From: an uncultured Actinomycetes bacterium
Lineage (GTDB): Bacteria > Actinomycetota > Actinomycetes > Streptosporangiales > Streptosporangiaceae
Direction: 5' to 3'
NCBI GenBank assembly: GCA_963753195.1
Contig: CAVWBH010000001.1
Span: 1,057,499-1,089,498 of the forward strand
Length of the DNA stretch: 32,000 nt
Shown here: positions 10,157-15,702 of the stretch, one piece after another
Layout of the letters: each line of letters begins with the position of its first letter
Numbering within the stretch: position 1 is the stretch's first letter
The notes under the pieces: generated by a model
Told to the model about the DNA's origin: nothing
Databases searched by the model: none
What the model saw: only the letters and a program-made list of their open reading frames with translations
Translations under genes and position numbers: made by a program

Positions 10157-11050
10157 GTGACGGCGACCCTTGATTGGTACGGCTGTGCCACATTCCGGCT
10201 GACTGTCGGCGAGCTCGTTGTTTTCCTGGATGCCTACATCGACCGGGCCGAAGGGGCGGCGGGCACGGGGCTAACCGCAGGTGACATCGACCGATGTGAC
10301 TTCGTAGTGGTCGGCCATTCGCATTTCGATCACCTCTGGGGGGCAGAGCGAATTGCCCGGAACACCGGGGCGACGATCATCGGTAGTTTTGAGACCGTCC
10401 GTGTCATGCAGACCCAGGGTGTCCCGCTCGCCCAGCTCATGCCCGTCGCGGGCGGGGAGCGCATCCGGCTGGCTGATGAGGTGTCAGTCTCGGTTTACCC
10501 GTCGCTGCACTCCTGCATCTGGTCCCATGCGTCGGCACGCGACCCAAGCGAGGTCTGCCTCGGTGATCTCGGGGTGCGGTACCAGGATCGGCAGGCGCGG
10601 CTCGCTGAGATGGGACGTCGGCTGGAATCCCTTGGCCCGGCGGTCGCCGAGCACCTCCAGGGCAGCGAGCAGGGCGCCCGGGGGGACGGCGGCGCTCTGT
10701 GCTACGTCTTCGACACGCCCGGTGGACGGTTGTTCTACCAGGACACCTCCGGTTACTGGACCGGAATGGTGCAGGGGATCCGCCCCGACGTCGCCATCAT
10801 CGCCGCAGCCGGCCGGGGCAACATCGACGGTGAGCCGATCCAGGGCTCGCTGGCCCAGTTTGTCGGCCGGGAAGCCGCGCTGCTACGCCCCCGGCGGATT
10901 GTCCTAGGCCACCACGACAACTGGCTCCCTGGATTTTCCGCCGCCACCGACGTCGCCCCGTTCCGCGAGGAACTCACCCGGTTCACGCCCGGTGTGGCCT
11001 TGGACGAGCTCGGCTACCTGGACGGCCACGAGATCTTCGGCGGCCGGTAG
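10157..11050 (+). CDS. MBL-fold metallo-hydrolase
   Basis: Has the HxHxDH motif (VVGHSHFDHLWG) and a later HHDNW. GTG start at 10157. Confidence 0.8.
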   Translation: MTATLDWYGCATFRLTVGELVVFLDAYIDRAEGAAGTGLTAGDIDRCDFVVVGHSHFDHLWGAERIARNTGATIIGSFETVRVMQTQGVPLAQLMPVAGGERIRLADEVSVSVYPSLHSCIWSHASARDPSEVCLGDLGVRYQDRQARLAEMGRRLESLGPAVAEHLQGSEQGARGDGGALCYVFDTPGGRLFYQDTSGYWTGMVQGIRPDVAIIAAAGRGNIDGEPIQGSLAQFVGREAALLRPRRIVLGHHDNWLPGFSAATDVAPFREELTRFTPGVALDELGYLDGHEIFGGR

Positions 11051-11084
11051 CATATCGGCGGCGTATCGGAAACCACATACGGGC
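11043..11084. repeat. Left copy of the ~41-bp direct repeat bracketing the van cassette; contains TATCGG-N5-TATCGG (candidate VanR operator upstream of vanH)
   Basis: gccggtagcatatcggcggcgtatcggaaaccacatacgggc aligned to 15662-15702 gccggtgtatatcgtcggcataccgaaaaccacagacgggc. 34/39 aligned positions are identical, with one 3-vs-2-nt indel. It spans the MBL stop codon and ends 31 nt before the vanH ATG. Confidence 0.8.
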
Positions 11085-11114
11085 CGGCAACACCATGCTG
11101 CCTTGACTGGGGGC

Positions 11115-12155
11115 ATGACCTACAGCGAACCGGCACTATCAGAGGCCTGCCGCACGCGATCGCTGGCGTCCCCGTCCTCCTCGGCGGTCCCGGCCACGGG
11201 AATCACGATTTACGGATGCGGGCAGGACGAGGCCGTTTTGTTCCGGGAGATAGCGCCTCGCCTTGGCGTGATGCCAACTATCACAGAGGCAGCGGTATCT
11301 GAAGCCAATATTGAGCTGGCTTCCGGAAACCGGTGCATCAGCGTCGGCCACAAGACTCAGATCACGAATTTCACTCTTCTTGCGCTCAGCCGCGCCGGCG
11401 TAACGTACATCTCCACGCGAAGCATTGGATATAACCATATCAATGTGAAATACGCGGAGAGCGTCGGCATTTCCGTCGAGAACGTCGCCTATTCGCCCGA
11501 CAGCGTGGCCGACTACACGCTGATGCTCATGCTGATGGCGGTGCGCAATGCAAAATCCATAATCCGCCGTGCGGATATTCATGATTACAGATTGAATGAT
11601 GTACGCGGGAGAGAACTGCGCGATCTGACCATCGGGGTAATCGGGACAGGACGCATTGGTGCCGCGGTCATGGACAGGCTGCGGGGGTTCGGCTGCCGGA
11701 TACTGGCCTATGACAGGCGTCCCAAGACCGCTGCCGATTACGTTCCTCTTGATGAATTGCTGCAGCTGAGCGACGTGGTAACGCTCCATACACCGCTTAA
11801 CGCGGACACGCACCATCTCTTGAATCGCCGGCGTATCGAGCAGCTGAAGCACGGCGCGTTCATTATCAATACTGGACGCGGTTCACTTCTCGATACGGAG
11901 GCCCTTATCCCGGCACTGGAAAGCGGCAGACTGGGCGGTGCGGCGCTGGATGTCCTCGAGGGAGAGGAAGGAATATTCTACGCCGACCGAAGGAACGAGC
12001 CCATTGAGAGCAAGCCGCTGTTGCGGCTGCAAGAGCTGCCGAATGTGCTTATCAGTCCGCACACGGCCTACTACACGGACCACGCCCTGAGCGACATTGT
12101 TGAAAACAATATCATCAACTGCCTGAAATTTGAAAGGCGAAATCGGCATGGATAA
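11115..12155 (+). CDS. vanH: D-lactate (2-hydroxyacid) dehydrogenase VanH
   Basis: Collinear by eye with enterococcal VanH as I recall it (ITIYGCGQDEA..., CISVGHK, YISTRSIGYNHI, VAYSPDSVADYTLMLMLMAVRN, GVIGTGRIG, VTLHTPLNADTHH, INTGRGSLLDT, GGAALDVLEGEEGIFY, ISPHTAYYT, FERRNRHG). The stop overlaps the vanA start (ATGGATAA). ATG 11115 is the only canonical in-frame start downstream of the MBL gene. Confidence 0.92.
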   Translation: MTYSEPALSEACRTRSLASPSSSAVPATGITIYGCGQDEAVLFREIAPRLGVMPTITEAAVSEANIELASGNRCISVGHKTQITNFTLLALSRAGVTYISTRSIGYNHINVKYAESVGISVENVAYSPDSVADYTLMLMLMAVRNAKSIIRRADIHDYRLNDVRGRELRDLTIGVIGTGRIGAAVMDRLRGFGCRILAYDRRPKTAADYVPLDELLQLSDVVTLHTPLNADTHHLLNRRRIEQLKHGAFIINTGRGSLLDTEALIPALESGRLGGAALDVLEGEEGIFYADRRNEPIESKPLLRLQELPNVLISPHTAYYTDHALSDIVENNIINCLKFERRNRHG

Positions 12156-13847: not shown

Positions 13848-14957
13848 TCATCTGCCGGTGTGCGGAGCCGCGATGGGCAGTTGCACCGTGACGCAGAGCC
13901 CTCCGGCGGCCGGCGGGGCGAGGGCAAGGGTTCCGTCGTGTGCTTGGGTGATGCTCTTGACGATGGCCAGGCCGAGGCCGACACCTGCATGGTCACCACG
14001 TATGCGTTCAGTGCCGCGCTGGAACGGTTCGGTGAGGGTCGAGACCACCCGCGGGCTGAGCTTGACGCCGGTGTTCTTGACAGTGAGCATCACAGACTCG
14101 GCGCGGATGGCGGTGCTGAGCTGCACGGTGCCGTGTTCGGGGAGGTTGTGGACGATGGCGTTGTGCAGGAGGTTCGTGGTCATCTGCAGCAGGAGCGCGT
14201 GGGAGCCGACGGTGGGGGTGATGTCCCCGGAGGTCTCGATGGTGACGCCGTGCTTTTCCGCGAGCGGGAGGAGCGTTTCTGCGGCTTCTTCCGCGATGAG
14301 GGACAAGTCGACGTGTTCCCGGGTGAAGGATCGCTGGCCGGCGCGGCTGAGCAGAAGCAATGCTTCGGTGAGATCGATCGCCCGGGTGTTGACGGCGCGG
14401 AGGCGGTCGTCGAGCTCGCCGCGGTCGCGGTTCGGATCGCCGCGGGCGACGTCGAGCAGGGCCTGCGTGATCGCCAGCGGGGTGCGCAGTTCGTGGGAGG
14501 CGTTGGCCGCGAACCTCTGCTCTTCGGCGACGTGCGCTTCGAGCTGTGTGAGCATGATGTCGAAGGCGTCGGCGAGTTCGCGGAACTCATCGCTGCGGCC
14601 CGGTAGCCGGATTCGGTGTGAGAGCGTTCCGGTCGCGGCTATTCGTGTGGCGTCTGTGATGCGAGCCAGGGGGGCAAGCATGCGCCCGGCGAGAATCCAC
14701 CCACCCAGGAGACCGAATACCAGCAGGAACGCCAGGACTGCGGCGGCCGCTTGGCCGAAGGCTCGCTGGGGGATGTCGCGGCCTGGAGCGAACGCCCCGC
14801 CGATGCCAGATCTTGTGGTTCTGATGACCGCCGCGTCGGAGAAGTATCGTTGGAGGATCACCCACAGGGCGAGCAGCAAGGCACCCGCGAGCACGAGGAA
14901 TCCGGCGTAGCTGAGGGTGAGTTTGAGGCGGACGCTCAAACCAGGGGCTCTATCCAC
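13848..14957 (-). CDS. vanS: Sensor histidine kinase VanS
   Basis: Two TM helices flank a ~34-aa external loop. Followed by HAMP, the H-box ASHELRTPL, the N-box LLHNAIVHN and G-box GVGLGLAIV. I chose the GTG at 14957 (369 aa) because it overlaps the vanR stop (GTGGATAG) and follows AGGAG. The longer ORF to 15173 overlaps vanR. Confidence 0.88.
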   Translation of the reverse strand: MDRAPGLSVRLKLTLSYAGFLVLAGALLLALWVILQRYFSDAAVIRTTRSGIGGAFAPGRDIPQRAFGQAAAAVLAFLLVFGLLGGWILAGRMLAPLARITDATRIAATGTLSHRIRLPGRSDEFRELADAFDIMLTQLEAHVAEEQRFAANASHELRTPLAITQALLDVARGDPNRDRGELDDRLRAVNTRAIDLTEALLLLSRAGQRSFTREHVDLSLIAEEAAETLLPLAEKHGVTIETSGDITPTVGSHALLLQMTTNLLHNAIVHNLPEHGTVQLSTAIRAESVMLTVKNTGVKLSPRVVSTLTEPFQRGTERIRGDHAGVGLGLAIVKSITQAHDGTLALAPPAAGGLCVTVQLPIAAPHTGR

Positions 14958-15645
14958 GGTCTCCTGTCCCGCGCTCGGTGTCTGGTCCGGTGTCGATGCG
15001 GTAGCCGACGCCGGCCACGGTGGCGATGACCCAGGGTTCGCCGAGCCGCTTGCGCAGGGCCGAGACGGTGATGCGCACGGCGTTGGTGAACGGGTCGGCG
15101 TTCTCGTCCCAGGCCCGTTCCAGGAGCTCCTCGGCGCTGATGACACCACCTTCGGCGGCGACGAGAACTTCAAGCACGGCGAACTGCTTCCTGGTCAGCG
15201 CGACGTAGCGGCCGTCCCGGTAGACCTCGCGGCGGAACGGATCCAGGCGCAGGCCTGCGATCTCCCGTACGGGCGGCCTGTGGTGAGCACGCCTGCGGTC
15301 GAGTGCTCTGAGCCTGAGCACGAGCTCTCGGAGCTCGAACGGCTTGGTGATGTAGTCGTCGGCGCCGAGCCCGAACCCGGAGGCCTTGTCGTCAAGCCGG
15401 TCCGCAGCGGTGAGCATCAGGATCGGCATACCGCTGCCGGAAGCGACGATGCTTTCGGCGATCTCGTCACCGGGGGGCCCGGGAATGTCGCGGTCGAGGA
15501 CGGCGATGTCGTAGGCGTTGACGCTCAGCAGTTCCAGCGCGGTGTCGCCGTCACCGGCGATGTCGGCCGCGATCGCTTCCAGGCGCAGCCCATCGCGGAT
15601 GGCCTCCGCCATGTAGGGCTCATCCTCGACGACCAGCACGCGCAT
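14950..15645 (-). CDS. vanR: OmpR-family response regulator VanR
   Basis: Receiver domain (MRVLVVEDEP..., DIAVLDRDIPG, MLTAADRLDDK) plus a winged-helix output domain (LTRKQFAVLEVL..., GVGYRI). The assignment rests on operon context with vanS/vanHAX and on resemblance to Streptomyces-type VanR from memory. Confidence 0.9.
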   Translation of the reverse strand: MRVLVVEDEPYMAEAIRDGLRLEAIAADIAGDGDTALELLSVNAYDIAVLDRDIPGPPGDEIAESIVASGSGMPILMLTAADRLDDKASGFGLGADDYITKPFELRELVLRLRALDRRRAHHRPPVREIAGLRLDPFRREVYRDGRYVALTRKQFAVLEVLVAAEGGVISAEELLERAWDENADPFTNAVRITVSALRKRLGEPWVIATVAGVGYRIDTGPDTERGTGDRG

Positions 15646-15661
15646 GCTCTTAAGGCTACGA

Positions 15662-15702
15662 GCCGGTGTATATCGTCGGCATACCGAAAACCACAGACGG
15701 GC
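15662..15702. repeat. Right copy of the ~41-bp direct repeat; lies between the vanR start and the SDR stop (candidate VanR operator / vanR promoter region)
   Basis: See the left copy. It contains TATCGT (15671-15676) and TACCGA (15682-15687), 11 bp apart. It starts 17 nt upstream of the vanR ATG (minus-strand sense). Confidence 0.8.

Follow-up and report, generated by a model that had tools for sequence, protein, structure and literature searches.

In an uncultured actinomycete of the Streptosporangiaceae (GenBank assembly GCA_963753195.1, contig CAVWBH010000001.1, positions 1,057,499 to 1,089,498), the resistance genes vanHAX run head-on into the regulatory genes vanSR, and the resulting cassette is bracketed by two copies of a short direct repeat. 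Does this pair of repeats record how the cassette arrived in the chromosome, or does it reflect how the cassette is controlled? The stretch considered here, the window, comprises 32,000 nucleotides (nt). An initial annotation of it proposed that the repeats record a permutation, circular or tandem, or are att-like junctions indicative of mobility, and offered as a fallback that they are no more than the VanR operator kept at both promoters. Comparison with other van loci essentially upholds the fallback, refined to a bidirectional promoter with a truncated partner and subsequent deletional trimming. Both repeats are most probably (a probability of roughly 85%) the upstream part of the promoter of the actinomycete VanRS regulon, the product of ordinary regulation and later trimming rather than the scar of a mobile element or a permutation. 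This reading is based on the observed conservation, positions and orientation of the repeats and on the observed structure of the junctions.

The two copies lie in the same orientation and are identical at 28 of 33 ungapped positions; each is described below as two units, DR1 and DR2, and a third element (Table 1). Allowing one gap, the similarity runs about 9 nt further left (GCCGGTAGC vs. GCCGGTGT), which gives the same-orientation repeat of about 41/42 nt originally described, although the longest perfect identity shared by the copies is 8 nt. A degenerate pattern fitting both copies occurs at exactly two sites in the window and has no match in 100 dinucleotide-preserving shuffles; this result and the recurrence of the motif in about 70 loci rule out chance similarity. 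The same two sites alone are picked out by a weight matrix derived from 143 foreign promoters, with scores of 47.1 and 44.7 bits against a matrix maximum of 63.7. On the left, the TAG stop codon (11048-11050) of a metallo-β-lactamase (MBL)-fold hydrolase gene lies 1 nt before the start of the repeat at 11052. On the right the repeat ends at 15702, and the stop codon of a short-chain dehydrogenase/reductase (SDR) gene follows 9 nt on. The last 10 nt of the MBL gene, GGCCGGTAGC, stop codon included, are kept in the van-less relatives L090, L091, and L094, and are therefore native host sequence.

The motif recurs with a fixed relationship to van genes. One VanX-anchored scan of species-representative genomes yielded 80 van loci with 10-kb flanks, and counts for the vanR side cover the 54 van loci with a readable region upstream of vanR, the window among them. 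Divergent clusters (vanS<-vanR...vanH->A->X) account for 27 of the 54 and convergent clusters for 26, the layout of the window thus being common, while one locus is co-directional. In all 54, vanR and its proximal motif are on opposite strands, and 23-27 nt (mode 25) separate motif position 1 from the vanR ATG; the co-directional locus, L042, keeps this orientation rule, with vanR on the plus strand and the motif on the minus strand. The vanH-side motif points in the direction of vanH in approximately 63 loci, centered about 47 nt before the ATG and leaving a gap of about 30 nt to it. Both copies in the window show the same ATG spacing as those of the other loci. Because vanR is encoded on the strand opposite vanH, its box, inverted with respect to vanR, appears as a direct repeat of the vanH copy. 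The earlier argument that a shared divergent control region could place a direct repeat upstream of genes on opposite strands holds, in that vanH itself is driven by the vanR-proximal copy in L067, L074, L078, and L088, where one motif separates the two gene sets (vanS<-vanR<-motif->vanHAX).

Altogether 159 motif instances were found in 81 sources, and 145 of them extend into a full promoter. The consensus of 143 promoters, ATATCGTCGGCaTATCGAAAACCgCATACGtGC-cGGCAACACCnCGCtGCCTTGACTGGngGC-ATG, is strongest at TAT in positions 2-4 and 13-15, exactly 11 bp apart; TATCG occupies positions 2-6 and 13-17 as a tandem repeat with 11-bp periodicity, and further strong positions are A18-21, ATA 26-28, the AA of GGCAAC, and TTGACT. 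The parts of the module are two 11-bp units (A/G)TATCG-N5, then the -35-region element CC[A/G]CATACG[T/G]GC, CGGCAACACC, a TTGACT -10 element, and the ATG. Genes found behind these promoters include vanH (66 cases), vanY (25), FemAB/vanK (11), vanJ-like genes of the Exo_endo_phos family (4), and murF-like genes (2), with single cases of an S11 carboxypeptidase, an ABC ATPase, and a PhyH protein. On the side of vanR, the string catgctctcgatgctacgagccggcgc (plus strand) is kept across the 54 loci.

The right copy of the window differs from its counterparts in what follows it. The equivalent vanR-proximal copy is a complete promoter with an ATG in 44 of the 53 other loci, where the rightward copy drives vanY in most convergent and some divergent clusters, and vanJ or vanK in Streptomyces-type clusters. 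Conservation in the window ends 2 nt after the right copy, and neither the conserved CGGCAACACC nor the TTGACT -10 element is found after 15702 (2/9 and 4/8 positions match). A plus-strand gene or complete promoter beyond the right copy was ruled out, since GGCAACACC, TTGACT, and an ATG at +30 are all missing. The right copy is, to judge by its sequence, the remnant of a divergent rightward promoter of the vanY type that lacks GGCAACACC, the -10 element, and the gene. Truncation of this kind is seen in nine vanR-proximal copies, those of the window, L016, L030, L037, L046, L055, L057, L084, and L086, the other eight of which also belong to convergent clusters. The copy breaks off directly after the motif in L055, after about 24-26 nt in L057, L016, L086, L084, and L030, after about 18 nt in L037, and after about 15 nt in L046. 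All nine retain DR1, at least the TAT of DR2, and the vanR core promoter, and this natural deletion series suggests that vanR needs DR1 and the start of DR2.

The exactness of the bracketing was addressed with relatives found via the flanking proteins. In L094, which carries no van genes, the SDR is 94% and the flank DNA 95% identical to that of the window, and the homology (blastn) stops at 11051 and resumes at 15703; the repeat does mark the boundaries between cassette and flanks, as the initial annotation stated. No motif is present in L094 at a score of >=22/33, nor in L090, L091, L092, L095, or L096. The gene order in L094 (L094:8829-10860) is enoyl-CoA hydratase (ECH)-MBL, a 602-aa gene for a cyclic nucleotide monophosphate (cNMP)-binding/pyridine-nucleotide-disulfide oxidoreductase, and the SDR. 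The closest MBL relatives, L090 (92%) and L091 (89%), have unrelated downstream genes and so are not true empty sites. The differing genes in L094, L090, and L091 make the interval between MBL and SDR a replaceable slot that is variable in general.

A sister contig, L093, carries the van cassette at the same site (L093:8800-14810), with flanks 93% and cassette 94% identical to those of the window. It holds an extra 1113 nt at window position 13798, between vanX and vanS, which encode a murG-like glycosyltransferase of family GT28. At its left edge, 99 extra nt follow the MBL stop (GGCCGCTAGC) and lead up to a second GGCCGGTAGC, which immediately precedes the motif. At its right edge there are 38 extra nt, made up of 26 native nt in common with L094 and about 12-14 nt that resemble the rightward promoter (the remnant TGACCACAGGCGCC vs. 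TGACAACACGGCGC in L063). Because L093 has the same insertion with longer edges, the exact bracketing in the window is ascribed to later deletions, and because L093 holds both 10-mers, 99 nt apart, the window carries a deletion between them. Integration by microhomology of 10-12 nt between the 3' end of MBL (GGCGGCCGGTAGC) and the promoter flank (ccggccggtagc) had been considered and was dropped, as both 10-mers are present in L093. In its sequence L093 looks like a less-trimmed ancestral state of the window cassette.

From these three haplotypes an order of events at the site may be inferred. An L093-like insertion would have come first, the cassette replacing, or alternating with, another gene between MBL and SDR. 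The window lineage would then have lost 99 nt on the left by deletion between the two 10-nt GGCCGGTAGC repeats, and also 38 nt on the right and murG, leaving a cassette trimmed to the outer edges of the two motifs. The trimmed junctions are common to 9/9 contigs of the population, metagenome contigs of up to 1.6 Mb that encode an identical VanR in the same context, which places the van locus on the chromosome and fixed in a natural population. Motif polymorphisms among the nine contigs sit at positions that are variable in the general consensus too.

What the repeats might do is suggested by the van cluster of Streptomyces coelicolor (vanSR, vanJ, vanK, vanHAX; Hong et al., 2004), which has the same type of regulator as the window. 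A list of leaderless genes (PMC3160421), which draws its starts from Hong et al. (2004), includes the vanH, vanK, and vanR of this species as experimentally determined cases, and the -10/ATG strings of all three match the window. A divergent vanR-vanJ promoter has also been described there (PMC6001138). The S. coelicolor vanK string CCGCCGCCTTGACTGGGGGCATG (PMC3160421) matches GCTGCCTTGACTGGGGGCATG at vanH of the window, and the vanR string CGACTCGTAATCTCGACACCATG from the same source matches CGGCTCGTAGCCTTAAGAGCATG at vanR of the window. By this analogy, ATG 11115 of vanH and ATG 15645 of vanR are likely transcription starts of leaderless mRNAs. With transcription beginning at the ATG as in S. 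coelicolor, DR1-DR2 would occupy -63..-42 at vanH, followed by the third element at -41..-31 and TTGACT at -12..-7; at vanR, on the same premise, DR1-DR2 would lie inverted at -25..-46, ending 11 nt upstream of TAGCCT. Streptomyces loci of the S. coelicolor layout carry the motif before vanR/vanJ, vanK, and vanH. The window differs in that vanJ and vanK are absent, vanSR converges on vanHAX, and the divergent partner of vanR is truncated. By analogy, its cluster is expected to be regulated as that of S. coelicolor is.

The structure of the motif points to VanR as the protein that reads it. As a member of the OmpR/PhoB class, VanR is expected to bind head-to-tail (structural study of 2021), which fits the tandem 11-bp repeat, and DR1-DR2 is accordingly assigned as the putative VanR box. 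Gel shifts with the VanR homologue VnlR failed. Operators of PhoB and OmpR consist of two direct repeats with 11-bp periodicity, as does the van motif. Pho boxes are tandem 11-bp direct repeats that replace or abut the -35 region, and the box at the vanR promoter, which ends 11 nt upstream of the -10 hexamer, would occupy the classical pho-box position. Unlike in pho boxes, the box at vanH, vanY, vanK, and vanJ is turned the other way and displaced about 20 nt upstream, and one box seems to serve two promoters. In enterococcal Tn1546, VanR has sites at its own promoter, PvanR, and at the resistance promoter, PvanH. The logic in actinomycetes would be the same, although there is no sequence similarity between the operators and the VanR proteins are <20% identical.

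In the mechanism proposed here, a head-to-tail dimer of phosphorylated VanR would most likely sit on DR1-DR2. The left copy would be a complete module driving vanHAX, with the candidate VanR box at -63..-42. At the right copy the same bound VanR could autoregulate vanRS, and elsewhere it would also drive the divergent gene, usually vanY and in Streptomyces vanJ, so that vanR would stand back-to-back with a resistance-gene promoter and share its box. Candidate geometries are an inverted box overlapping the -35 region at vanR, and a direct box some 20 nt further upstream at the resistance genes. It is on balance probable, though appreciably less so than the promoter assignment itself, that the 22-nt core (A/G)TATCG-N5-(A/G)TATCG-N5 is the actinomycete VanR recognition site, that one dimer serves two back-to-back leaderless promoters in different geometries, and that the nine-locus series defines the minimal operator for vanR autoregulation.

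Several points weigh against this interpretation. The structural study of 2021 states that the sequences recognized by S. coelicolor VanR (VanRSc) are not known. DR1 and DR2 are no better conserved than the third element and CGGCAACACC, each of which could be the true site of binding or a further one; the third element, moreover, is intact in the right copy of the window, though the deletion series suggests that vanR can dispense with it. An inverted, differently placed box that activates two promoters would be unusual for PhoB-type activators, and at the vanR promoter the box could be a repressor site or neutral. The transcription starts are extrapolated from S. coelicolor, and the direction of events at the insertion site (whether the cassette displaced the L094 gene or the L094 gene the cassette) is drawn from just three haplotypes.

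Among the alternatives, the one that survives best, improbable as it is, holds that the 33-mer is not a VanR site and is either conserved through recent copying of the promoter region among van loci or read by another factor, for example a dedicated sigma factor. The recognition sequence missing from the structural study leaves room for such a view, and the promoter module does appear to have been copied along with the first codons of its genes. Conservation of the motif, however, exceeds that of the neighboring coding DNA, across orders whose Van proteins are 70-90% identical, and DR1-DR2 is the sole element common to every promoter known to be VanR-dependent, truncated vanR copies included. 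The 11-bp tandem repeat is, in addition, the OmpR/PhoB signature, and loci from metagenome-assembled genomes (MAGs) of Firmicutes, which have a similar VanX and no tblastn match to the window VanR in the fetched stretch, are without the motif.

It is very unlikely that the right copy has a function toward SDR, whether as a still active rightward promoter, giving a VanR-dependent antisense RNA to SDR, or, through its third element, as the SDR terminator. The intact third element would be consistent with either, and a weak terminator-like hairpin on the minus strand (15706-15692), followed by GTTTTCGG, lies directly after the SDR stop and overlaps the third element. Yet the promoter elements expected after 15702 are absent, terminator-like hits are not enriched (2 found vs. 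3.0 expected from shuffles), so that a terminator role was rejected as no better than shuffles, and the SDR gene with its 3' end is native and older than the cassette.

Equally hard to sustain is the idea that the 4.65-kb cassette is an amplifiable unit, in which unequal or microhomology recombination between the copies leads to tandem gain or loss of vanHAX-SR under glycopeptide selection. Same-orientation repeats do flank a resistance unit, and microhomology-associated deletions did occur at the locus. The copies are, however, just 28/33 identical with runs of <=8 nt, a single cassette copy with identical junctions is present in 9/9 population contigs, and no tandem or one-copy variant was found among the relatives examined. 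The search for mobility was likewise negative in the material covered. In agreement with the initial annotation, the called genes of nine contigs, taken to 10 kb on either side, and the window open reading frames (ORFs) scanned yielded no integrase, recombinase, or transposase, and no plasmid in the plasmid search covers >=80% of the cassette. The best plasmid matches are Embleya and Streptomyces megareplicons with 77-80% identity over vanHAX only, in an alignment that includes the promoter motif; matches from enterococcal plasmids start within the coding region, no earlier than query position 157.

Least tenable is the opening of a circular or tandem intermediate of a divergent vanSR-operator-vanHAX unit, with the repeats as duplicated operator or att-like junctions: single-operator divergent layouts exist, a rotation is formally possible deep in van-cluster history, and homology to the van-less relative breaks off precisely at the repeats, yet 26 convergent clusters from many genera carry the same pair of motifs, the right copy usually driving vanY and not a vanH fragment, the copies share too little perfect identity to serve homologous recombination well, the ORFs and called genes examined include no recombinase gene, and the original insertion in L093 ran past both motifs (99 nt on the left, at least about 12 nt on the right), so that the repeats are not the true ends of the inserted DNA. 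An att-type empty site would hold one copy, and the zero copies in L094 rule out an att site or one-copy scar. Like attL/attR and the repeats of amplifiable units, the van repeats are same-orientation sequences at the limits of an accessory segment; unlike attL/attR, they come with no recombinase and an empty site devoid of copies, and are internal functional promoters in every van locus whatever its location. The proposed permutation or att-like mobility was thus not borne out on either of the comparisons suggested for it, the van-less MBL/SDR junction carrying no copy and the motif being oriented and spaced alike toward vanH and vanR whether a cluster is divergent, convergent, or co-directional.

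Further observations concern the promoter module and its distribution. The string CGGCAACACC, at -30..-21 between the -35 region and the -10 element, is conserved in the 143 promoters as strongly as the putative VanR box, and could be the contact of a further regulator or of a sigma factor. The first approximately 7 codons seem to travel with the promoter: VanH, VanK/FemAB, some VanY, the ABC ATPase, and the PhyH dioxygenase all begin M-[T/S]-Y-[S/R/G]-E/T-P-A (examples in Table 1), a feature that promoter duplication may have left behind or that leaderless translation may demand. In L062, vanH lies behind a vanY-like gene under the vanR-proximal promoter, an apparent vanY-vanHAX operon in which vanH is without a motif of its own. 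No motif was found <=160 nt of vanH in L039, the second van locus of Actinoallomurus sp. CA-150999. Seven loci of Firmicutes type (L043, L053, L056, L059, L064, L082, and L085, from Candidatus Formimonas, Syntrophomonas, and unclassified Bacillota) encode a VanX 81-84% identical to that of the window; in the stretch fetched they have no promoter motif and, by tblastn, no VanR of actinomycete type. The enzymes cross phyla at these loci, and the control DNA does not.

The gene calls and convergent arrangement given in the initial annotation were confirmed by NCBIfam (Table 1). vanH, vanA, and vanX form one operon whose genes abut or overlap, and vanS and vanR form the operon of a two-component regulator with the Pfam architectures HAMP-HisKA-HATPase_c (VanS) and Response_reg-Trans_reg_C (VanR). 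By tblastn against the 80 loci, proteins of the VanH/VanA/VanX region are 70-93% identical to their counterparts, and VanR and VanS are 87-95% and 66-84% identical, respectively, to the versions encoded beside vanHAX in more than 50 loci. The program-made ORF for vanH opens at GTG 10992 and runs to 12155, taking in the 3' end of MBL and the entire promoter motif; about 65 loci show by their conservation that ATG 11115, not this GTG, is the real start. In several population contigs (L002-L005, L008) vanX or vanH is uncalled or fragmentary, yet tblastn finds near-identical coding sequence; contig L008 has no good VanH and VanX matches. Either the assemblies contain indels here, or part of the population carries genuine pseudogenes.

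Table 1. Positions of the van cassette, its repeats and the adjoining host genes in the window (positions preceded by L refer to other loci).
Feature	Position	Strand	Basis or description
MBL-fold hydrolase gene (host, left flank)	10157-11050	+	Pfam/NCBIfam matches
Left copy	11052-11084	+	Upstream half of vanH promoter; -63..-31 relative to vanH ATG
Left DR1	11052-11062	+	ATATCGGCGGC
Left DR2	11063-11073	+	GTATCGGAAAC
Left third element	11074-11084	+	CACATACGGGC; covers -35 region
vanH core promoter	11085-11114	+	CGGCAACACC at 11085-11094; -10-like TTGACT at 11103-11108
vanH	11115-12155	+	NCBIfam vanH_gen, 552.8 bits vs. cut-off 540
vanA-type D-Ala-D-Lac ligase gene	12148-13194	+	NCBIfam D_ala_D_lac, 636.5 vs. 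550; VanA-Sc, 685 vs. 650
vanX	13184-13792	+	NCBIfam, 403 vs. 320
vanX/vanS convergent intergenic region	13793-13847	no strand	Between the head-on gene sets
vanS	13848-14957	-	Best NCBIfam model VanS-O
vanR	14950-15645	-	Best NCBIfam model VanR-O
vanR core promoter	15646-15669	-	-10 hexamer TAGCCT at 15658-15653 (minus strand), at -13..-8
Right copy	15670-15702	+	DR1 15670-15680; DR2 15681-15691; third element 15692-15702; inverted relative to vanR
Right junction	15703-15711	no strand	9 nt (TGCGCTGAT) between motif and SDR stop
SDR oxidoreductase gene (host, right flank)	15712-16539	-	Pfam/NCBIfam; stop codon 15712-15714 (TCA on plus strand)
Shared N-terminal codons (examples)	L017:60; L028:5269(-); L072:12652; L024:13703; many vanH starts; window 11115-11135	as given	Similar starts of unrelated proteins

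Clusters of this type are well known in the phylum. The vanHAXRS and vanHAXRSY arrangements of actinobacteria and a widespread vanRSY triad have been catalogued (Andreo-Vidal et al., 2021; PMC8698665), and the window shares with these classes, and with vanO of Rhodococcus equi, the same gene set and the co-location of vanRS with vanHAX. Although the best models for VanS and VanR are of vanO type, both fall below the vanO-specific NCBIfam cut-offs (463.8 vs. 505 and 528 vs. 720), and the locus is therefore not the vanO allele itself. The murG-like gene of L093 stands after vanX, as described for vanO-like operons. In comparison with vanO-type and vanHAXRSY clusters, the window lacks vanY, orf2, and murG and is a minimal version; it is a minimal, chromosomal member of the known actinobacterial vanHAXRS class.

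A cluster of a type already catalogued in >10% of actinobacterial genomes thus carries repeats that are no evidence of mobility. What the comparison yields is a precise candidate for the VanR operator and for the promoter layout of the actinomycete van regulon. The absence of a VanR recognition sequence had limited the modelling of VanR on DNA in the structural study of 2021. The three haplotypes at one site, van-less, van with murG and ragged edges, and trimmed minimal, present a resistance cassette that has become embedded and streamlined without mobile-element machinery, which is relevant wherever the lack of a nearby transposase serves to judge the risk of transfer in resistome surveys.

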